58,596 nt of DNA from positions 1-58,596 of the forward strand of contig DATMAP010000050.1 in the NCBI GenBank assembly GCA_035559835.1, in the 5' to 3' direction. Positions 50,043 to 58,596 of the stretch are shown here, piece after piece. The notes below the pieces were generated by a model that saw nothing but the letters and a program-made list of their open reading frames with translations, was not told the DNA's origin and made no database searches. The position numbers were made by a program, and so were the translations under genes. Position 1 is the first letter of the stretch. Every line of letters starts with the position of its first letter. The DNA comes from Gaiellaceae bacterium. GTDB taxonomy: Bacteria > Actinomycetota > Thermoleophilia > Gaiellales > Gaiellaceae.

Positions 50043-50285
50043 GTGGCCACCGTCTTCGAGGTCGAGCAGGCGGGCTGCCCGAGCTGCGCACGCCGCGTGC
50101 GTGGCGCGCTGGAGGCGCTCGCCGCCGTCGCCGAGCTGACGATCGACGAGGAGCAGGACGTCGCCACCGTGCGCCTGGCTGACGCCGGCGCGTCCGAGGA
50201 CGCCGTCAACCGCGTCCTTGCCGAGGCGTCACAGGGGAGCGGCCACGCCTACCGCGTGAGACCGGGCTCCTGGCGCTCCGAGTAG
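50043..50285 (+). CDS. heavy-metal-associated (HMA)-like small protein with CxxC
   Basis: GTG 50043 gives (M)ATVFEVEQAGCPSCARRVRGALEALAAVAELTIDEEQDVATVRL..., a ferredoxin-like HMA layout with GCPSC in place of GMxCxxC. High GC3. Confidence 0.65.
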   Translation: MATVFEVEQAGCPSCARRVRGALEALAAVAELTIDEEQDVATVRLADAGASEDAVNRVLAEASQGSGHAYRVRPGSWRSE

Positions 50286-51258
50286 GCCGCCGCTCCGTAC
50301 GCTGCGGCGGTGCGCCCACACAGGCCTCCGCGTACTCGGCCGACTTCGCGCAGCAGCGCGTGAGCGTGGCCACGAACCTCGACTCCGCCGGGGAGAGGTC
50401 GCGGCCGGCGAGGGTGGCCAGCGAGAACTGCCGGGTCAGGGGAGAGAGCCCGTGGACACGGAACGCCTCCAGCTCCCCGCGCGCCACCTCTTCGGCCACC
50501 GCGTAGCGCGAGAGGAACGCGACCCCGAGTCCCTCGCGCGCGGCGCGCTTGATGGCCTCGCTCGAGCCCAGCTCCCAGCGCCCGCCGGTCTCGATCCCGG
50601 CAAGGGCCAAGGCCCGCTCGACGAGGGCTCGCGTGGACGAGCCGGGCTCGCGGCAGAGGAACAACCTGCCGCGCAGCTCGGCGAGCGGCAGATAGCCGGC
50701 CTCGAGCGGCAGCGTCCCCGGCTGCGCGATCCCGACCAGCTCGTCGTCGAGGAAGGGGGTGAGGGTGACGCGCTCGTCCGTCGCCTCGGCGCCCACGATC
50801 GCGAGCTGCACGCGGCTCGAGAGCAGCCGCCGGAGGATCTCCCCGCTCGAGGCGATCTCGACCTCGACGGTGACGCCGGGGTGGTCGCGCCGGAAGCAGC
50901 CGAGCGTGTCGGGGAGCAGGTAGACGCCGGGCGCGGTGGACGCGCCGACGTGGATCGTTCCCGTCTCCAGCCCCGTGAGCGCGGCGAGCTCCTCCTCCGC
51001 CCGGTCGAGGCTCGCGAGCGCCTGCGCGGCGCGGGCGGCGAGGACGCGGCCGGCCTCGGTCAGGCGGCTGCCGCGGCCGTTGCGCTCGACGAGACGCTGG
51101 CCCGCCGCCGTCTCGAGCAGGCGCAGGTGCTGACTTGCGCTCGGCTGGCCGATGCCGATCGCCTCGGCCGCGGCCGAGAGCGTGCCCCGGCGCTCGATCT
51201 CGACGAGGAGCCGCATGCGGGTCGTGTCCCAGAGCGCGCTCAGCGTCGTCTGCGCCAT
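50206..51258 (-). CDS. LysR-family transcriptional regulator
   Basis: N-terminal HTH (RGTLSAAAEAIGIGQPSASQHLRLLE) and a LysR substrate-binding domain. The roughly 50-aa Arg-rich tail overlaps the HMA gene 3' end. Confidence 0.85.
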   Translation of the reverse strand: MAQTTLSALWDTTRMRLLVEIERRGTLSAAAEAIGIGQPSASQHLRLLETAAGQRLVERNGRGSRLTEAGRVLAARAAQALASLDRAEEELAALTGLETGTIHVGASTAPGVYLLPDTLGCFRRDHPGVTVEVEIASSGEILRRLLSSRVQLAIVGAEATDERVTLTPFLDDELVGIAQPGTLPLEAGYLPLAELRGRLFLCREPGSSTRALVERALALAGIETGGRWELGSSEAIKRAAREGLGVAFLSRYAVAEEVARGELEAFRVHGLSPLTRQFSLATLAGRDLSPAESRFVATLTRCCAKSAEYAEACVGAPPQRTERRPTRSARSPVSRGRRGRSPVTPRQGRG

Positions 51259-51352: not shown

Positions 51353-51874
51353 ATGCCCCAGGAGCGCATCCGGGAGTCGATCGAGGCGGCACGTGGGTAT
51401 CTGAGCGAGCATCCCGAGGAGGCGCGCGCGCACGACCTGCCGGCCACGGCGGTGCTCGAGGAGGGGCTCCGCTGCCGGGTCGAGGGCCCCGCCGGCACGG
51501 CGATCGTGACGGACATGCCCGCGGCGGTCGGGGGTATGGCCTCCGCGCCGACGCCCGGCTGGCTGGCGCGCGCGGCGCTCGCGAGCTGCGACGCGACGGT
51601 GCTCGCCATGCGGGCCGCCGAGCTCGGGATCGCGATCGAGCGGATCGAGGTGACCGTCGAGAGCGAGTCCGACGACCGCGGCCTGCTCGGAGTCGCCGAG
51701 GCGCCGGCCGGGCCGCTCAGCGTGCGCGTGCGTGCCAGGCTGGTCGGAGGGAGCGTGGACGACGACGCGGTGCGCGCGCTGCGCTCGTGGCTCGAGGACC
51801 ACTCGCCCGTCGGCGGCGTCTACCGGCACGGCGTGCCGACCACCCTCGAGCTCGAGACGGTGGCCGTGCCGTGA
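51353..51874 (+). CDS. OsmC/Ohr-family protein
   Basis: 173 aa, GAGGAGG RBS. ...APTPGWLARAALASCDATV.... Divergent from the LysR gene. Confidence 0.8.
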   Translation: MPQERIRESIEAARGYLSEHPEEARAHDLPATAVLEEGLRCRVEGPAGTAIVTDMPAAVGGMASAPTPGWLARAALASCDATVLAMRAAELGIAIERIEVTVESESDDRGLLGVAEAPAGPLSVRVRARLVGGSVDDDAVRALRSWLEDHSPVGGVYRHGVPTTLELETVAVP

Positions 51875-52620
51875 TCCTGCGCCCGTTCCTGTACGAGCCG
51901 ACCTCGTGCGCGAGCTACCTCTTCGGCTGTACGACGCAGGGGCAGCTTGCGGTCGTGGACCCGCACTCCGAGCTCGTCGAGGCCTATCTCGAGACCGCGC
52001 GCGACCTCGGCCACCCCATCGTCGCGGCCTTCGAGACGCACGTCCAGGCCGACCACGTCTCCGGGCTCCCCGAGCTCGTCGCGGCTGGCGCGACCGCGTA
52101 CCTGCCCGCGGGGGCCGGCGTCTCCTTCCCGCACGTCGCGCTCGCGGGCGGCGAGCGCATCGAGCTCGGCAACACGCTCGTGACCGCGCTCGCGACGCCC
52201 GGCCATGCCCCCGCGCACGCGGCGTACGCCGTCGCCGACCGACGCCGCGGCGACGAGGAGCCCTGGCTCGTCTTCACGGGGGACTCCCTGCTCGTGAACG
52301 ACGTCGGCCGCCCCGACCTGCACGCGACGGGCGACCCCGAGCCGCTCGCCCGGGAGCTGCACGCATCCCTGCGGAGGCTTCTGGCGCTGCCCGACGACGT
52401 GCTCGTCCTGCCGAGCCACTACGGGGGCTCGGTGTGCGGCCGTGCCCTCTCCGGGAACCCCTTCTCGACCATCGGCTTCGAACGGCGCCACAACCGCGCG
52501 CTCGCCCTCGACGAGGACGCCTTCGCCGAGGCGGCGCTGCGCGACCTGCCCCCGCCCCCGGCGGAGCAGGAGGCGATCGTGGCGGCGAACCGCGCCGGAC
52601 GGCCGCGAGCCGCGGCGTGA
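51871..52620 (+). CDS. MBL-fold hydrolase (persulfide-dioxygenase / glyoxalase-II-like) with variant metal motif
   Basis: GTG 51871 (GTGA overlap). ...SYLFGC..., ETHVQADHVSG (HxQxDH rather than HxHxDH), TPGHAPAH, FTGDSLLVNDVGRPDL. Confidence 0.8.
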   Translation: MILRPFLYEPTSCASYLFGCTTQGQLAVVDPHSELVEAYLETARDLGHPIVAAFETHVQADHVSGLPELVAAGATAYLPAGAGVSFPHVALAGGERIELGNTLVTALATPGHAPAHAAYAVADRRRGDEEPWLVFTGDSLLVNDVGRPDLHATGDPEPLARELHASLRRLLALPDDVLVLPSHYGGSVCGRALSGNPFSTIGFERRHNRALALDEDAFAEAALRDLPPPPAEQEAIVAANRAGRPRAAA

Positions 52621-53843
52621 GCTCGATCCGGCTGGGCCTGCGGGCGAACGCCCGCCAGTTCTCCCTGCTCGTCGGGATCACGGGACTCGTCGGGGCGGCC
52701 GCCGGCCTCGAGCGCAGCGTCCTCCCGCTCGTCGGCGAGGAGGAGTTCGGGATCGCGTCGCGGACGGCGATCCTCGCCTTCGTCGCCACCTTCGGGGCCG
52801 CGAAGGCGGCGGCCAACCTCTTCTCCGGGCCGCTCGCGGAGCGGTCGGCCCGGAAGCGCGTGCTCGTGCTCGGCTGGCTGGCCGTGCTGCCGGTGGGGCC
52901 GATCGTCGCGCTCGCGCCCTCCTGGTCGACCATCGTCGCCGCCAACGCGCTCCTCGGCGCCGGCCAGGGCCTCGCTTGGTCGATGACGATCGTGATGAAG
53001 ATCGACCTCGTCGGCCCGGCGCGCCGAGGCCTGGCTCTGGGGCTGAACGAGGCGGCGGGCTACCTCGGGGTCGCCGTCGCGGCCTTCGCGACCGGGGCGG
53101 CAGCGAGCGCGGTCTCGCCGCGGACGGCGGTGTGGGTCGGGATGGCGGGCGTGTCGGCGCTCGGGCTGCTCGCCTCGCTCGTCCCGGCGCGGGACACCTC
53201 GGCGCACGTCGCGCACGAGCAGGCCGCGCACGGAGCGGCGCGGGCGGCGTCGCTGCGGCGCGCGCTCGGAGCGAGCGTGCGCGCTCCCGTGCTGCGCGCC
53301 TGCTCCCAGGCGGGCTTCGTCAACAACCTGAACGACGCCGTGCTCTGGGGCCTCGTCCCCCTCTACCTCGCGGCGCGCGGCGCGACCGCGGCCGAGATCG
53401 GGCTCGCGGCAGGCGTGTATCCGGCCGTCTGGGGGCTCGGGCAGGTCGCCACCGGCTGGGCCTCCGACCACCTCGGGCGCAAGCCGCTCGTCGTCGCCGG
53501 GATGCTCGTGCAGGGCGCCGCGCTCGCGCTCCTGGCTGCCGGAGGTGGCGATCTCGCCTCCGCTCTCGTCGCCTCCGTGCTCCTCGGCCTGGGCACGGCG
53601 CTCGCCTACCCGACGCTGATCGCGGCCGTCTCCGACGTGGTCAGCCCCCGGGACCGAGCGCCCGCCGTCGGCGTCTACCGCTTCTGGCGAGACGCCGGCT
53701 TCGTCGCCGGCGCCGTCGCGGTCGGGCTCGTCGCCGACGCCGCGGGAGCGCAGGCGGCGATCGGCGTGACCGCCGCGCTGACCGCCCTCTCGGGGGTGTG
53801 GGTCGCGGCCGTCCGCTTCGCTACGAGCGCGTCGCGCGGATGA
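52617..53843 (+). CDS. MFS transporter
   Basis: GTG 52617 (GTGA overlap). 12-TM-like profile. ...DHLGRKP... loop motif. Confidence 0.8.
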   Translation: MSSIRLGLRANARQFSLLVGITGLVGAAAGLERSVLPLVGEEEFGIASRTAILAFVATFGAAKAAANLFSGPLAERSARKRVLVLGWLAVLPVGPIVALAPSWSTIVAANALLGAGQGLAWSMTIVMKIDLVGPARRGLALGLNEAAGYLGVAVAAFATGAAASAVSPRTAVWVGMAGVSALGLLASLVPARDTSAHVAHEQAAHGAARAASLRRALGASVRAPVLRACSQAGFVNNLNDAVLWGLVPLYLAARGATAAEIGLAAGVYPAVWGLGQVATGWASDHLGRKPLVVAGMLVQGAALALLAAGGGDLASALVASVLLGLGTALAYPTLIAAVSDVVSPRDRAPAVGVYRFWRDAGFVAGAVAVGLVADAAGAQAAIGVTAALTALSGVWVAAVRFATSASRG

Positions 53844-54615
53844 CCGCGCAGACGGCGATCCGTTCGAGCCGCTCGGGCGCGATCAGCCGGCGCATGGTCG
53901 CGAGCAGCTCCTCCGTGAAGAGCGGGTAGAGCTCGCAGTCCGCGATTCCCATCGGCGTCCGCTCGAGCACCTCGATCTCCGAGAAGCCCGCCCGCTCGAG
54001 CTTTCCGACGAAGTCACGCTCCGTCAGGGCACCCGCCACTCAGCCGGCCCAGGCAGCCGGGTGCGTCAGCACCTCCGGCGGGAGCTCCTCGTCCTCCACG
54101 GTGACGTCGGCGACGCAGAGCTCGCCGCCGGGCCTCAGCACGCGCGCGCACTCGGCCAGCGCCCGCGCCTTGCGCGGCGAAAGGTTGATGACCCCGTTCG
54201 AGAGCACGCAGTCGACGCTCGCCTCGGGAAGCGGGATCGCCTCCATCTCCCCCTCGAGCGTCTCCACGTTGTCGAGCCCGGCCTCCTGCGCCGCCGCGGC
54301 CGTCCGCCCGAGCATCTCGGGGAGGAAGTCGAGCGCGAGCACGCGGCCGGAGGGGCCCGTTCGGTGCGCAGCCAGGATCGTGTCGATGCCAGCGCCGCAG
54401 CCGAGATCGAGGACGGTGTCGCCCGGCCGGATGCGCGCGTGGCGGAGGTGGTTGCCGACGCCGAGGGCGCGCCCGACCGCCGACGCCGGGACGAGGGCGA
54501 GCTCCTCGGGCGAGTAGAGCCTCTCGGCGACCGCGCGGCTCTCGCCGTCGACCGCGCGGTAGGCCTCGCGCACGAGCGCCCGGATCTCGTCTTGGTGCAG
54601 GAGGTCGCGGGTCAT
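53821..54615 (-). CDS. ArsM/AS3MT-like SAM-dependent methyltransferase, probable selenoprotein (in-frame TGA at 54042..54040)
   Basis: Track ORFs 54040..54615 and 53821..54039 are contiguous and in the same frame. Joined: ...VLDLGCGAGID...VLSNGVINLS...LTHPAAWAG-U-VAGALTERDFVGKLERAGF.... The U sits where ArsM/AS3MT have the conserved Cys of W.GC.AGAL. Confidence 0.75.
54005..54027 (-). promoter_or_regulatory. candidate SECIS hairpin for the methyltransferase gene
   Basis: RNA CUGACGGAG-CGUGA-CUUCGUCGG: 9-bp stem (2 G-U pairs), 5-nt loop containing GU. Starts 12 nt after the UGA. Confidence 0.5.
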
Positions 54616-54845
54616 GCTCCGCCGAGCTCGTCGAGCGTCGCCACGAGCCGGGCGCGGACCTGCGGCGGGAGGTCGTCCTCGGCGTGGGCGGCGAGGAAGG
54701 CGCGGAGCTCCTCCGCGAACTCGAGCTCGCCGCAGCAGCGGCGACAGAAGGCGAGGTGCTCCTCGACCTGCGCGCGCCGCGACTCCTCGACGATCCCGTC
54801 GAGGTAGTCCCAGAGCTGACGCACTGCCTCCGCGCAGGTGATCAC
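54612..54845 (-). CDS. ZAS-family (RsrA-like) anti-sigma factor
   Basis: GTG 54845 gives (M)ITCAEAVRQLWDYLDG...EEHLAFCRRCCGELEF. HxxxCxxC zinc/redox motif plus N-terminal Cys. GTGA and ATGA overlaps with both neighbours. Confidence 0.8.
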   Translation of the reverse strand: MITCAEAVRQLWDYLDGIVEESRRAQVEEHLAFCRRCCGELEFAEELRAFLAAHAEDDLPPQVRARLVATLDELGGA

Positions 54846-55441
54846 GCGCGCGCGCCTTCCTTCAGGAGGCCGTTCCGCTCGGCGTAGCTCCAGAGCTCGC
54901 GCTCGAAGAGCTTCCGCCCGCGGTGGAGCCGCGCGAGCATCGTCCCCAGCGGCACCTCGAGCATGAAGGCGACCTCCTTCACGTGGTAGCCGGCCATGTG
55001 CACGAGGACGAGGGGGACGCGGTACAGCTCGGGCAGCGAGGCGAGGACGGCGCGCACGTCCTCGCCGCCGAACTGCTGCAGGAAGTCGAGGTGCACCGAG
55101 TCCGAGTACGGGAAGGGGTCCTCGTCGGCGATCTTCCGGAAGAGCGAGAACTCGTCGGCCTTCTCCAGCTCGACGGTCTCGACCCGGCGTCCCTGCGCGC
55201 GCCAAAGGTCGTGGCAGCAGTTGACGAGGATCGCCGTGAGCCAGTCGCGCCCGGCACCGTCGTCCGCGAGCTGGGAGAAGCCTCGGTAGGCGCGGAGCAG
55301 GCACTCCTGGACGACGTCCTCGGCGTCGTCGCCGACGAGGCGGCGCGCGAGCGCGTACAGCCGGCCGAGCTCGCTCTCGGCGAGCCTCCGGAACCGCTCG
55401 ACCGAGGCGGTGCCGCTGCCCGTGGAGATGGCGTCGCCCAC
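54842..55441 (-). CDS. ECF-type RNA polymerase sigma-70 family factor
   Basis: Region 2 (DAEDVVQECLLRAYRGF) and region 4 HTH (VKEVAFMLEVPLGTMLARLHRGRKLF). Confidence 0.85.
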   Translation of the reverse strand: MGDAISTGSGTASVERFRRLAESELGRLYALARRLVGDDAEDVVQECLLRAYRGFSQLADDGAGRDWLTAILVNCCHDLWRAQGRRVETVELEKADEFSLFRKIADEDPFPYSDSVHLDFLQQFGGEDVRAVLASLPELYRVPLVLVHMAGYHVKEVAFMLEVPLGTMLARLHRGRKLFERELWSYAERNGLLKEGARA

Positions 55442-55481
55442 AACTCCGCTCCCTCGTAGAGACGCTCCCGGAGAGGAAGTT

Positions 55482-55495
55482 ATTGCAGGTGCAAT
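55482..55495. promoter_or_regulatory. AT-rich palindrome ATTGCA-gg-TGCAAT
   Basis: Sits in the 117-bp divergent gap between the ECF sigma gene (start 55441, -) and the OsmC gene (55559, +). The local sequence is the most AT-rich stretch of the gap. Confidence 0.35.
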
Positions 55496-55558
55496 GAGAT
55501 CCGGGACGCGGCCGTCTTACCGGGGGAGAGAGCAGGGAATCCGAACAGGAGGGAGGAG

Positions 55559-56131
55559 ATGGCGACCGTAACGGTGCGCAACGGCGTCGACGTGGGGGCG
55601 CTGCTCGAGACGATCGACGCGATCAAGGCCAAGCCAGAGCTCGCGAGCTTCACCTTCCGCGCGCGTACCCGGTGGCAGGAGGGGACGTGCGCGACCGCGC
55701 AGATCGGCTCGTTCCTGCACGCGGGGGCGGAGGACGGGACCCGCGAGCAGCCCTTCACGCTCGTGGGCGACGAGCCGCCCGTGCTCCTCGGGCACAACCA
55801 GGGCCCGAACGCGGTCGAGCTCCTGCTGGCCGCGCTCGGCTTCTGCTACTCGGTCGGCTACGTGGCGAACGCGGCCGCGCGCGGGATCGAGATCGAGGAG
55901 ATGTCGTACGAGCTCGAGGGCGACCTCGACGTCCGCAGCTTCCTCGGCCTCGAGGGCGGCGCTCGTCCCGGGTTCACGGAGATCCGGGCAAAGGCGCGCG
56001 TCAAGGCCCCGGGAGCGAGCAAGCAGGAGCTGAAGGAGCTCTGCGCCTACGTGCAGGACACGTCGCCGGTCCTGGACGCGCTCGCGAATCCGGTGCCGGT
56101 CAAGACGACGATCGAGGTGCTCGGGGCGTAG
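55559..56131 (+). CDS. OsmC-family protein
   Basis: 190 aa, GGAGGGAGGAG RBS. ...NAVELLLAALGFCYSVGY... OsmC-like core. Confidence 0.8.
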   Translation: MATVTVRNGVDVGALLETIDAIKAKPELASFTFRARTRWQEGTCATAQIGSFLHAGAEDGTREQPFTLVGDEPPVLLGHNQGPNAVELLLAALGFCYSVGYVANAAARGIEIEEMSYELEGDLDVRSFLGLEGGARPGFTEIRAKARVKAPGASKQELKELCAYVQDTSPVLDALANPVPVKTTIEVLGA

Positions 56132-56152
56132 CGGCTTCAGCCGCTACGCCCC
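56123..56152 (+). terminator. perfect 13-bp stem hairpin spanning the OsmC stop codon
   Basis: ggggcgtagcggc-ttca-gccgctacgcccc. No U-tract follows, so it may act as a terminator, attenuator or mRNA-stability element. Confidence 0.5.
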
Positions 56153-56173
56153 GAACGACAGAGAGGAGCGACG

Positions 56174-56677
56174 ATGAGCACCGTCGCGACCCGGCACGGA
56201 ACGGCCGAAGAGGCGGGTTCGAGGCTGCGGCTCGGCACGGGCCTGATGACGCTCGGCGCGGCCGCGTTCATCGGCTACGCCGTCGTCTTCTTCGTGCGCA
56301 ACTTCACCGACAGCTTCCTCGAGCTCGGGATCGGACCCGGCCAAGTGAGCGTGGGCAAGGAGGAGATCCAGGACTTCAGCCCCTCCCTCTACGACTACGT
56401 CGGCCACCTGCACATCGCCGTCTCCGGCTTCATCGCCGCGACCGGCCTCGCCGTAGTCTTCCTGAGCTGGTTCGGCGTCCGGCGCGGGCAGGCGTGGGCC
56501 TGGGTCGGGGCTGTCGCGGCGCCCGTGCTCGGGCTCGCCGTCGCGCTGCCTGCCCACTATCCGTACGGCTTCGACACGATCGGCCACCTGGGGCTGATCT
56601 ACCTGGCCACGGCCATCTTCGTCGTCGGTGCCGTGCTCTCGGGCCAAGCGCTGCTCGCCGGGCGGGTGGGGCGCTGA
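56174..56677 (+). CDS. hypothetical membrane protein (4 TM)
   Basis: 167-aa ORF with four hydrophobic helices, GAGAGGAG RBS. No family recognised. Confidence 0.6.
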   Translation: MSTVATRHGTAEEAGSRLRLGTGLMTLGAAAFIGYAVVFFVRNFTDSFLELGIGPGQVSVGKEEIQDFSPSLYDYVGHLHIAVSGFIAATGLAVVFLSWFGVRRGQAWAWVGAVAAPVLGLAVALPAHYPYGFDTIGHLGLIYLATAIFVVGAVLSGQALLAGRVGR

Positions 56678-56720: not shown

Positions 56721-56804
56721 GACCTGCGATCGGGAAAAGCGATGGACGGTATCCCGATGCTCGGGTTGACCGATGGAGTAGGACGGCGTAGGGTCGAAGC
56801 GCCG

Positions 56805-57503
56805 ATGGCGTCGTCCTCACACGGGAACGGAGAGGCGGCAGCCGTGACCGTCGGCTCCCGCAGCGCGAGAGTCGCAACCCGTCTGGGGACGCTCGGCGGG
56901 AGGGACCGGGCGCAGGTGGCGGCAGGGAGCGCCCTGGTCGCCGCCTCGGCGCTTGCCTGGCTCGCGCTCGCTGGCACCGAGCCGCCGCTGGGCGCGGCCG
57001 GCTTCCTCGCTGGCTGGACGCTGATGATGGTGGCGATGATGCTCCCCTCGATCCTGCCGCTCGTGCTGCTCCACCGCGGCTCACGGGCGGGGTTGGTGGC
57101 GGGGTACCTGGGCGTCTGGAGCGCGCTCGGCCTCCTCCCGTACGCGGCCATGGAGTGGGGCCTCGAGCTCGGGCTCCCGCTCGTGCTCGCGCTCGCGGGC
57201 CTGTACGAGCTGAGCCCGCTGAAGTCCGCCTGCCTGCGGCGATGCCGCAACGTTGCCGGGTTCCTGCTCGAGCACTACCGCAGCGGGCCGCTCCGGCTCG
57301 GGGCCGAGCACGGCCTGTGGTGCGCCGGCTGCTGCGCAGGCCTGATGGCGCTGCTCGTGCTCGCCGCCTCCATGGGCCTGCAGTGGGCGGCGGCGATCGC
57401 GGCGGTCGTGTTCGTCCAGAAGGTCCTGTCCTTCGGCGAGCCCTCGGCCCGGGTCGTGGGCGCCGGGCTGCTCGCCGCCGCCGCGCTCGTCGCGGTCACC
57501 TGA
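56805..57503 (+). CDS. DUF2182-like predicted metal-binding integral membrane protein
   Basis: ATG 56805 (alternatives 56742 and 56757). ...FLAGWTLMMVAMMLPSILP... and ...SPLKSACLRRCR... are typical of DUF2182, assigned from memory. Confidence 0.7.
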   Translation: MASSSHGNGEAAAVTVGSRSARVATRLGTLGGRDRAQVAAGSALVAASALAWLALAGTEPPLGAAGFLAGWTLMMVAMMLPSILPLVLLHRGSRAGLVAGYLGVWSALGLLPYAAMEWGLELGLPLVLALAGLYELSPLKSACLRRCRNVAGFLLEHYRSGPLRLGAEHGLWCAGCCAGLMALLVLAASMGLQWAAAIAAVVFVQKVLSFGEPSARVVGAGLLAAAALVAVT

Positions 57504-57515
57504 GAGGAGAGTGGA

Positions 57516-58121
57516 ATGGCCGAGTCGTGGACGATGAAGGGGACGGTCCTGATCGCGTGCAACTGCGCCTACGGCTGCCCGTGCAACTTCAACGCCCTGC
57601 CGACGACCGGCAAGTGCGAGGGAGAGTGGACGTGGCACGTCGAGGAGGGCGCCTACGGCACCGTCGACCTCCGCAGCGTGACTTTCACGCTGGCCGTGAA
57701 CTGGCCGGGCGCGATCCACGAGGGCAACGGCGTCGCTCTGCTGCTGGTCGACGAGCGCACGACCCCCGCGCAGCGGGACGCGATCCACACCCTGGTCAAG
57801 GGCGAGGCGGGCGGCCCCTGGGGCGTCCTCGGCTGGACGTGGCCGACGCTGCACGGGCCGGAGGCCGTGTCCTTCGAGCTCGAGCTGGACGGCCTTCGCT
57901 CCCGCGTCCGCGCGGGCGCAGGGTTCGAGCTGGAGCTGGAGCCGATCCGGAACCCCGTCTCCGGGGCGGAGGTGACGCCGGGCGCGGTGCTTCCGCAGGG
58001 GATCGTCTTCAAGCAGGGCGACTTCGCCTCCACGAGGAGGTACCGGGTGGAGGCGCTGGGCATCGACTACCGGGATACGTACGCGGCCGTGGCGCCCTTC
58101 GACTACGCCGGAGGGAAGTGA
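57516..58121 (+). CDS. DUF1326-like Cys-rich protein
   Basis: N-terminal W.MKGTVLIACNCAYGCPCNFNALPTTGKCEG cysteine cluster and about 200 aa length. GAGGAGAGTGG RBS. Confidence 0.7.
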   Translation: MAESWTMKGTVLIACNCAYGCPCNFNALPTTGKCEGEWTWHVEEGAYGTVDLRSVTFTLAVNWPGAIHEGNGVALLLVDERTTPAQRDAIHTLVKGEAGGPWGVLGWTWPTLHGPEAVSFELELDGLRSRVRAGAGFELELEPIRNPVSGAEVTPGAVLPQGIVFKQGDFASTRRYRVEALGIDYRDTYAAVAPFDYAGGK

Positions 58122-58596
58122 TGGCGATCGAGGCGGACATCGACGTCGGGCTGCTCAAGTCCGAGATCCGCAAGACGTACGCGGCCGTCTCGCAGGAGCC
58201 GGAGCGGGAGTTCGTCTTCCCGACCGGCCGCGCCTGGGCCGAGGACCTCGGCTATCCGCCCGAGCTGGCGCGGGTGCCCGACTTCGTCGTGGAGTCGTTC
58301 GCCGGCGTCGCCAACCCCTTCTCGCTCGGCCGCCTCGAGCAGGGCGAGCGGGTGCTCGACGTGGGCTCGGGGGCCGGCACCGACTCGCTCGTGGCGGCGC
58401 TCATGGTGGGGCCGGAGGGCTCGGTCACAGGGATCGACATGACGCCTGAGATGCTCGCGAAGGCACGGGCCGGCGCGGCCGAGCTCGGGCTCTCGAACGT
58501 GACCTTCGTGGAGGGCGAGGCGGAGGCGCTTCCGTTCGCCGATGCGAGCTTCGACGTCGCCGTCTCCAACGGGGTCATCGACCTCATCCCGGACAA
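58121..58596 (+). CDS. ArsM-like SAM-dependent methyltransferase paralog, 3' end outside window
   Basis: Not in the ORF track (no stop in window). ATG 58121 overlaps the upstream TGA by 1 nt. MAIEADIDVGLLKSEIRKTYAAVSQ...VLDVGSGAGTD...VAVSNGVIDLIPD. Like the 53821-54615 gene, it lacks the first two ArsM cysteines. Confidence 0.75.
   Translation, partial: MAIEADIDVGLLKSEIRKTYAAVSQEPEREFVFPTGRAWAEDLGYPPELARVPDFVVESFAGVANPFSLGRLEQGERVLDVGSGAGTDSLVAALMVGPEGSVTGIDMTPEMLAKARAGAAELGLSNVTFVEGEAEALPFADASFDVAVSNGVIDLIPD

Follow-up and report, generated by a model that had tools for sequence, protein, structure and literature searches.

A conserved module of an ECF sigma factor, a zinc-binding anti-sigma factor and an ArsM-like methyltransferase with a predicted selenocysteine, from Gaiellaceae and other soil bacteria

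The closest described relatives of the system reported here are SigR-RsrA of Streptomyces coelicolor and SigH-RshA of mycobacteria, in which a sigma factor of the extracytoplasmic function (ECF) group ECF12 is paired with a small cytoplasmic zinc-associated anti-sigma (ZAS) factor. In RsrA a zinc-thiolate site sequesters the sigma factor, and attack on that site by thiol-reactive species sets it free. To our knowledge, very few ECF sigma/ZAS pairs have a known signal, and fewer still a small regulon that can be read off directly. Here we describe a locus in a 58,596-nucleotide contig (DATMAP010000050.1 of assembly GCA_035559835.1, positions 1 to 58,596; hereafter the window) from a Gaiellaceae bacterium, in which genes for an ECF sigma factor, a soluble ZAS anti-sigma factor and an S-adenosylmethionine (SAM) methyltransferase with an in-frame UGA codon, MT1, lie head to tail on the minus strand. 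We consider it probable that these genes belong to an autoregulated ECF/ZAS module whose dedicated outputs are two methyltransferases of the ArsM fold, each with one Cys or selenocysteine (Sec), together with a thiol-dependent partner (OsmC, or DsrE in some relatives).

The likeness to SigR-RsrA is considerable. As there, a small cytoplasmic ZAS factor accompanies an ECF sigma factor, with which it is predicted to be co-transcribed, and the promoter is predicted to be autoregulatory; the ligand positions (N-terminal Cys, then His, Cys and Cys) and the 26-residue Cys-to-His spacing are the same, and the closest solved structure to the sigma factor is SigH of Mycobacterium tuberculosis (E 3.3e-18). 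Nevertheless, both proteins score below the respective equivalog cut-offs and are not orthologues of SigR/SigH and RsrA. SigR-type promoters have the form GGAAT-N18-GTT, whereas the motif found here is TGCAATAA or GGGAATAA, followed by N15-16 and CGTC. RsrA lacks the second of two adjacent Cys residues that are invariant in the present family. Finally, the SigR regulon is large and concerned with thiol homeostasis, whereas the regulon predicted here looks minimal and local, and the present module is found outside Actinomycetota as well.

On the methyltransferase side, Sec-containing ArsM-family proteins are a recognised selenoprotein family, annotated as 'arsenite S-adenosylmethyltransferase' (PRK11873; Zhang and Gladyshev 2008, PMC2398784; PMC5029168; PMC9312934), and the selenoenzyme itself is therefore not new. 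These proteins share the fold of MT1 and of a second methyltransferase at the locus, MT2, and have Sec or Cys, depending on lineage, at the third ArsM cysteine; MT1 and MT2 differ from them in having none of the other arsenite-binding cysteines, and in falling below the PRK11873 cut-off. None of the literature searched reports linkage of the family to an ECF sigma/ZAS pair. MT1, and more closely MT2, also match the methyltransferase part of the NCBIfam models ArsM_AhpD_UU (NF041537), ArsM_DUF2284_UU (NF041536) and MTase_UXPK_star (NF047649) with 150-173 bits, the highest figure being that of MT2 with NF041537, and these scores are far below the models' cut-offs of 460-575. The NCBIfam fusions pair the Sec methyltransferase with the thiol-peroxidase-type AhpD, whereas in the present locus OsmC is a neighbour encoded separately, and a second Sec is absent; nor do the fusion definitions include a dedicated sigma and anti-sigma factor.

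A likeness in layout only is offered by the SCO3450-3452 island of S. coelicolor (bioRxiv 10.1101/247056), where an ECF sigma factor, a zinc-finger anti-sigma factor and a methyltransferase make up a contiguous, self-contained regulon. It was set aside as an instance of the same system on account of its ECF01 sigma factor and the predicted membrane-spanning nature of SCO3451, and its regulon, of about 26 genes, differs too. No description of the fixed combination, of its promoter or of one-Cys/Sec MT1 and MT2 proteins as a dedicated output was found in the literature searched, and the main text of the ECF re-classification paper makes no mention of methyltransferases; the ECF Hub may well list the group. 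The parts are of known kinds, namely an ECF sigma factor, a ZAS anti-sigma factor and Sec-containing ArsM-family proteins; their combination suggests a self-regulating detoxification circuit, apparently undescribed.

The window DNA has a G+C content of 73%, and in a scan of one genome per species its closest relatives were metagenome-assembled genomes (MAGs) of Gaiellaceae (Thermoleophilia, Actinomycetota). A sequence-only reading of the window had described positions 53821-55441 as a translationally coupled operon, with overlapping codons at both gene junctions. Both overlaps are present: within GTGA (54845-54842) the GTG start of the anti-sigma gene (54845-54843) overlaps the TGA stop of the sigma gene (54844-54842), and within ATGA (54615-54612) the ATG of MT1 overlaps the anti-sigma stop. 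The 4-nt overlap is kept at the first junction in 61 of 73 related loci and at the second in 35 of 75, the remainder of the latter having gaps of at most 67 nt, bar two artefacts of open reading frame (ORF) calling. Since the overlaps recur across related loci, they are not due to chance. Within 53400-56300 neither a sigma-70-like promoter nor an intrinsic terminator was found. Overlaps and uninterrupted sequence together support the prediction of one tightly coupled operon, and gene order and overlaps alike are conserved across phyla. Only the proposed extent was too narrow, as the promoters (55461-55516) and a divergent operon running from 55559 to the window end also belong to the system (Table 1). 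Among MAG assemblies, two loci (L012 and L023) show apparent read-through of the anti-sigma stop and one (L072) a fused anti-sigma/MT1 ORF; these are probably assembly or frameshift artefacts.

Table 1. Positions of the module, its predicted control elements and neighbouring genes in the window.
Feature	Position	Strand	Details
ECF sigma factor gene, 199 aa, GTG start	54842-55441	-	Sigma70_r2, Sigma70_r4_2, TIGR02937
Soluble ZAS anti-sigma factor gene, 77 aa	54612-54845	-	zf-HC2; C4, H30, C34, C37, C38
MT1, ArsM-like SAM methyltransferase, predicted selenoprotein, 264 aa including Sec192	53821-54615	-	Methyltransf_31/25/11
In-frame UGA (predicted Sec192), motif AAWAG-U-VAGAL	54040-54042	-	invariant Cys in 14 homologues
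SECIS-like hairpin GACGGAG-CGUGA-CUUCGUC, 7-8 bp	54007-54025	-	starts 15 nt after UGA
Predicted sigma-dependent autoregulatory promoter	55461-55487	-	-35 TGCAATAA (55487-55480), 15 nt, -10 CGTC (55464-55461)
Predicted divergent promoter, same type	55490-55516	+	-35 TGCAATGA (55490-55497), 15 nt, -10 CGTC (55513-55516)
OsmC-like protein, 190 aa, first divergent gene	55559-56131	+	PF02566 74 bits; Cys96, Cys162 conserved
Conserved membrane protein, 167 aa	56174-56677	+	homologues 62-81% identical in module, 18 Actinomycetota loci
PpoB2/DUF2182 membrane protein, start uncertain	56757-57503	+	PF09948 122 bits
DUF1326 protein	57516-58121	+	PF07040 156 bits
MT2, second ArsM-like methyltransferase, 5' part	58121-58596	+	window end precedes expected Sec codon
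LysR regulator	50206-51258	-	
Second OsmC-like gene	51353-51874	+	
GloB-like metallo-beta-lactamase (MBL)-fold hydrolase	51871-52620	+	
Major facilitator superfamily (MFS) transporter	about 52623-53843	+	converges on MT1, 23-bp overlap with MT1 3' end

The association of the three genes was assessed from two sides. A search with MT1 among genomes, taking one per species, gave 80 loci, 41 of them well flanked (at least 3 kb upstream and at least 1.5 kb downstream). By tblastn, the order sigma, anti-sigma, MT1 was present in every locus that had upstream flank, among them all 41 of the well-flanked ones. Carriers include Gaiellaceae, Kribbella, Streptomyces, Blastococcus, Georgenia and Micromonosporaceae among the Actinomycetota, Limnocylindria, Thermomicrobiales and Anaerolineaceae among the Chloroflexota, and also Zixibacteria, Verrucomicrobiia, Methylomirabilota and Rokubacteria. 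From the other side, metagenome matches to the sigma factor separated cleanly into two classes, with no match between 36% and 54% identity. Where sigma orthologues (at least 54% identity) had enough sequence beside them, the anti-sigma gene came next in 40 of 40 cases, and MT1 followed in 34 of the 34 contigs of that class with at least 600 nt downstream; a methyltransferase accompanied none of the 28 distant ECF sigma matches (at most 36% identity). On this comparison the linkage of sigma, anti-sigma and MT1 is obligate from both directions, and considerably more than a hundred soil bacteria of several phyla have the triad. The absence of the triad from all relatives, which the sequence-only reading had named as grounds for abandoning its proposal, is decisively contradicted by these counts.

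Membership of the sigma factor in the ECF (group 4) branch of the sigma-70 family is clear: regions 2 and 4 alone are present (Sigma70_r2, 46.8 bits; Sigma70_r4_2, 36 bits), and the family hidden Markov model TIGR02937 (sigma70-ECF) scores 56.3 bits against a cut-off of 42.9. With TIGR02947 (SigH_actino), by comparison, the score is 89.2 bits against a cut-off of 251.55, far from that of a SigR/SigH (ECF12) orthologue. Three Cys residues of the sigma factor (C47, C75 and C76) were considered as a second redox layer and rejected because they are not conserved.

The anti-sigma protein, which has no hydrophobic segment, was read from the sequence as an RsrA-like ZAS factor with an additional N-terminal Cys. 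Its sequence V-I-T-C4...H30-L-A-F-C34-R-R-C37-C38-GELEF indeed combines HxxxCxxC with such a residue, and zf-HC2 (PF13490) matches with 38.4 bits against a cut-off of 22.2; together with the overlap of its gene with the sigma stop, this places it among the ZAS proteins. In a pairwise alignment to RsrA (PDB 5frf), C4, H30, C34 and C37 correspond to RsrA C11, H37, C41 and C44, that is, to all four zinc-ligand positions. H30-x3-C34-x2-C37 is invariant in 75 loci, as is the longer pattern C-x25-27-H-L-x2-C-x2-C-C-G-E. Orthology to RsrA does not follow, the RsrA equivalog TIGR03988 giving 51.6 bits against a cut-off of 62.5, and by these measures the protein is RsrA-like but not an RsrA orthologue. 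The Cys-Cys pair at codons 37-38 (54731-54736, minus strand) occurs in 75 of 75 loci; RsrA has the first Cys only. The family is small, with 739 clusters at E<=1e-3 and 43 at <=1e-10 in a search of 1.84 billion representative proteins, and its members are mostly 75-110 aa long.

The MT1 reading frame passes a TGA at codon 192 and continues for 72 further codons. An alignment of 14 homologues has Cys without exception at this position (AAWAG-C-VAGAL) and shows the last 72 residues to be conserved. Of the 80 species-representative genome loci, 29 have TGA here, 47 TGC and 4 TGT, and on metagenome contigs reached via the sigma factor 26 of 29 loci have TGA; the coding bias in G+C at third codon positions (GC3) runs on across the TGA. 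Scanning the whole window for in-frame TGA read-through produced no other convincing candidate. The hairpin that follows, resembling a selenocysteine insertion sequence (SECIS) element, has a stem of 7-8 bp and a CGUGA loop with an apical G, about 15 nt after the UGA. Its consensus, G(A/G)CGGAG-CGUGN-CUUCG(U/C)C, is found in 27 of the 29 TGA loci and in none of the 51 Cys loci, and 85% of cells in its columns are paired against 28-56% in slid controls (26 distinct sequences). It is this specific hairpin alone that separates Sec from Cys loci: mean folding energy does not do so in such GC-rich DNA, and at -0.3 the minimum free energy z-score for the 71 nt that follow the UGA is unremarkable. 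A UGA in frame and aligned with Cys, conserved coding sequence downstream of it and the hairpin together support the prediction that the MT1 TGA encodes Sec, and the earlier proposal of a selenoenzyme is borne out to that degree. Two TGA loci without the common hairpin, from Methylomirabilota (L078) and Rokubacteria (L080), have another one, CACUGGC-GGA-GCCAGUG, equally far from the UGA, and this points to independent evolution or replacement of the SECIS element.

MT1 is a class I SAM methyltransferase by its domains (Methyltransf_31/25/11) and has more than 3,600 database homologues, many of them named arsenite methyltransferase; the best of these, of about 265 aa, match it from end to end with 65-72% identity. 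Arsenite methyltransferases are also the nearest solved structures (5evj, E 5e-29, then 5eg5 and 4fr0), and these ArsM chains align over residues 37-237. The description of MT1 as ArsM-like therefore stands as regards the fold. When aligned to 5evj and 5eg5, Sec192 falls at the cysteine of the ArsM 'GEC-L-GGAL' motif; the cysteine of 'GCG' is replaced by Val54 (GVG) and that of 'SNCV' by Gly141 (SNGV), and both replacements hold family-wide in the 14-homologue alignment. We take the GCG, SNCV and GEC-L-GGAL positions to be Cys72, Cys174 and Cys224 of CmArsM, respectively. Cys72 and Cys174 of CmArsM are needed for As(III) binding. Of the arsenite-binding cysteines, then, only the equivalent of Cys224 is retained, as Sec192, and PRK11873 gives 216.7 bits against its cut-off of 263. 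With one catalytic cysteine position left, MT1 is, from these alignments, ArsM-like in fold only and not a canonical ArsM. Some MT1 homologues are fused to TusA (P0054, P0055, P0083 and P0100) and one to a cupin (P0115).

Upstream of the sigma gene the loci share an ECF-type motif, with TGCAATAA in Actinomycetota or GGGAATAA in Chloroflexota separated by 15-16 nt from CGTC. Of 70 loci, 61 have it ahead of the sigma gene, where shuffled sequences would give 0.08, and an inverted copy faces the divergent gene in 47 of 70, against 0.10 expected; these counts are descriptive because the motif was derived from the same loci, but the enrichment is nevertheless very large. When GCAATA-N14-19-CGTC was sought in the window, the forward site was the sole exact match, against 0.12 expected. 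The motif, its inverted copy and the sequence free of internal promoters and terminators, taken together, argue for positive autoregulation of the sigma/anti-sigma/MT1 transcript and for a divergent unit that also depends on the sigma factor, both being predictions. In the window the back-to-back -35 elements, TTATTGCA-GG-TGCAATGA (55480-55497), form a near-perfect palindrome with 2 bp between them, as against 8-25 bp in other loci. Two holoenzymes bound so close together could hinder one another; alternatively, the palindrome could serve as the binding site of a dimeric regulator.

The divergent unit opens with the OsmC-like gene. The 167-aa membrane protein encoded after it has no Pfam or NCBIfam match and is, judging by its homologues in other loci, an unrecognised member of the system. 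The PpoB2/DUF2182 and DUF1326 genes lie between it and MT2; the pair was rejected as part of the module since it recurs in one other locus (L024) only, and it is probably a lineage passenger. MT2, whose ATG at 58121 overlaps the DUF1326 stop, is about 40-44% identical to MT1 (tblastn). The MT2 genes of relatives carry TGA or a Cys codon at the position of the MT1 Sec, and a hairpin of their own, GC(U/G)CU(G/C)C-UGGAR-G(C/G)AG(A/C)GU, with compensatory changes. A divergent OsmC gene is present in 24 of the 41 well-flanked loci and MT2 in 25, in 15 of them divergent and in 10 just downstream of MT1. Clustering of all ORFs of the loci against each other was dominated by spurious GC-rich ORFs, and only a DsrE cluster was usable: in ten loci (L004, L005, L008, L009, L011, L012, L017, L019, L055 and L080) the module includes a gene of the DsrE family, mostly on the OsmC side, whose product is about 120 aa long and has CPIC or C-x-x-C as a motif. 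TusA and DsrE are sulfur carriers, while OsmC and AhpD are thiol-peroxidase-type proteins. The DsrE neighbours and the TusA fusions hint, at the level of gene context, at sulfur-relay chemistry. Beyond MT1 in the window lie the MFS, MBL-fold and further genes of Table 1; MFS genes occur near the module in six other loci and MBL genes in three.

On the reading we prefer, that of an autoregulated module with methyltransferase outputs, the anti-sigma factor would at rest hold the sigma factor by a zinc site made of C4, H30, C34 and C37, as RsrA does. A thiol-reactive signal in the cytoplasm, perhaps oxidant, electrophile or a soft species of a chalcogen or metalloid, would attack the zinc-thiolates and so free the sigma factor. 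RNA polymerase with this sigma factor would then fire the two back-to-back TGCAATAA-N15-CGTC promoters predicted from comparative genomics. From one would come a single coupled sigma/anti-sigma/MT1 message, providing positive feedback and new anti-sigma protein to shut the system off, with MT1 made in parallel to both; from the other, OsmC, the conserved membrane protein and MT2. In what we regard as the weakest step, the single Sec of MT1 and MT2 (Cys in other lineages) would bind and methylate the offending species, whereupon the anti-sigma factor could re-form. Induction by thiol-oxidative, electrophile or metalloid stress, and a loop in which the methyltransferase helps to remove the signal, had been suggested from the window alone; by analogy with RsrA both are plausible.

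As to what is methylated, a sulfane-sulfur, selenium or tellurium species is our tentative preference over arsenite, and one that may well prove wrong. A chalcogen or persulfide substrate is favoured because the arsenite-binding cysteines are missing, because the partners are of the TusA, DsrE, OsmC and AhpD kinds and because no ars genes were seen nearby. In its fullest form the proposal is of a circuit that senses and disposes of reactive chalcogen (sulfane sulfur, selenium derived from selenide or selenite, or tellurium), with the anti-sigma factor as sensor, methyltransferases fed by carriers of the OsmC, DsrE or TusA type, and volatile methylated products whose formation switches the circuit off; we put this forward as a speculation with the odds against it.

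Several points weigh against the account preferred here. Besides the derivation of the promoter motif from the loci in which it was counted, the divergent -35 of the window, TGCAATGA, has one mismatch. Covariation in the MT1 hairpin is confined to a single pair (AU 13, GC 9, GU 4), and no Rfam family, SECIS included, matched the whole window at gathering thresholds or the surroundings of the UGA in a permissive scan, a result to be expected as SECIS elements in bacteria differ from one gene family to the next. The window, which is all that was covered in this respect, has no tRNA gene, and selA, selB, selC and selD were not seen in it. OsmC and MT2 are both missing from the neighbourhood in eight of the 41 well-flanked loci, so that the invariant core is sigma, anti-sigma and MT1 only, and the TusA and DsrE associations concern a minority of loci. 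The comparison of loci yields the gene identities, the operon layout with its coupling, the obligate linkage, the shared bidirectional promoter and, as predictions from codon and hairpin, Sec in both methyltransferases; the assignments of inducer and substrate are guesses.

Among other explanations, MT1 might be a component of the signalling apparatus, one that resets or modifies the anti-sigma factor (by S-methylation of the zinc-thiolate or by thiol-disulfide exchange through Sec) or is itself the primary sensor. Its absolute linkage to the anti-sigma gene in both searches (34 of 34 and 41 of 41 loci) would suit such a role, as would the coupling of the two genes in 35 of 75 loci, which is typical of proteins made in fixed stoichiometry, and the additional invariant Cys38 that RsrA does not have. 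However, a paralogue with the same Sec or Cys, MT2, is present in 25 of 41 loci, either within the output operon or downstream of MT1, the TusA and cupin fusions of MT1 homologues are partners befitting an enzyme, and in many Chloroflexota loci 5-67 nt separate the anti-sigma gene from MT1. Conserved target genes adjacent to ECF factors are, moreover, usually outputs, as general knowledge of ECF groups has it (PMC7826278). We therefore hold a signalling role for MT1 to be improbable. Less probable again is ordinary arsenic resistance, with MT1 a canonical ArsM and the sigma/anti-sigma pair sensing arsenite. The loss family-wide of the equivalents of CmArsM Cys72 and Cys174, to Val54 and Gly141, the PRK11873 score below cut-off and the absence of arsR, arsC and acr3/arsB among the genes annotated round the module all count against it, even though ArsM proteins give the best structural and NCBIfam matches (5evj and PRK11873), many homologues bear the arsenite methyltransferase name, and As(III), being thiol-reactive, could attack a ZAS site.

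The most sceptical explanation holds that the genes are adjacent without functional unity and that the methyltransferase is represented by a pseudogene or by two ORFs with a genuine stop between them, the selenoenzyme being an artefact. Gene callers do end the MT1 protein at 191 aa (P0001), the GTG that follows the TGA is a possible restart, and, as said, no Sec machinery was seen in the window. Yet 29 species-level genomes and 26 contigs from metagenomes have the TGA at the identical codon, with the 72 downstream codons conserved in frame; the codon after it is GTC, ATT or CTG in several loci, none of them a common start; and the hairpin is confined to TGA loci while the GC3 bias crosses the TGA. 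We give this explanation scarcely any credence, and retain the autoregulated module with its methyltransferase outputs as the preferred reading.

The sensor, both predicted promoters and the outputs of the module lie within about 3 kb, in a layout conserved in at least six phyla. This makes the function of a large, mis-annotated family of 'arsenite methyltransferases' with one catalytic Cys or Sec directly testable, and cultured hosts of the Cys type exist in Kribbella (K. turkmenica, K. caucasensis), Streptomyces (sp. E11-3), Blastococcus (B. deserti) and Georgenia (sp. AZ-5). The locus further yields a defined motif for the promoters of an ECF group that is uncharacterised and, in two paralogues, a clean pairing of Sec with Cys forms and SECIS elements specific to the lineage. 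Should the substrate be a sulfur or selenium species, the module would bear on the regulated emission of volatile sulfur and selenium from soils. If the proposed chalcogen circuit is real, the one-Cys/Sec proteins would constitute a new enzymatic class within the ArsM fold, that of chalcogen methyltransferases, and the abundant soil Actinomycetota and Chloroflexota that carry them would be an unrecognised, regulated source of methylated sulfur and selenium volatiles.

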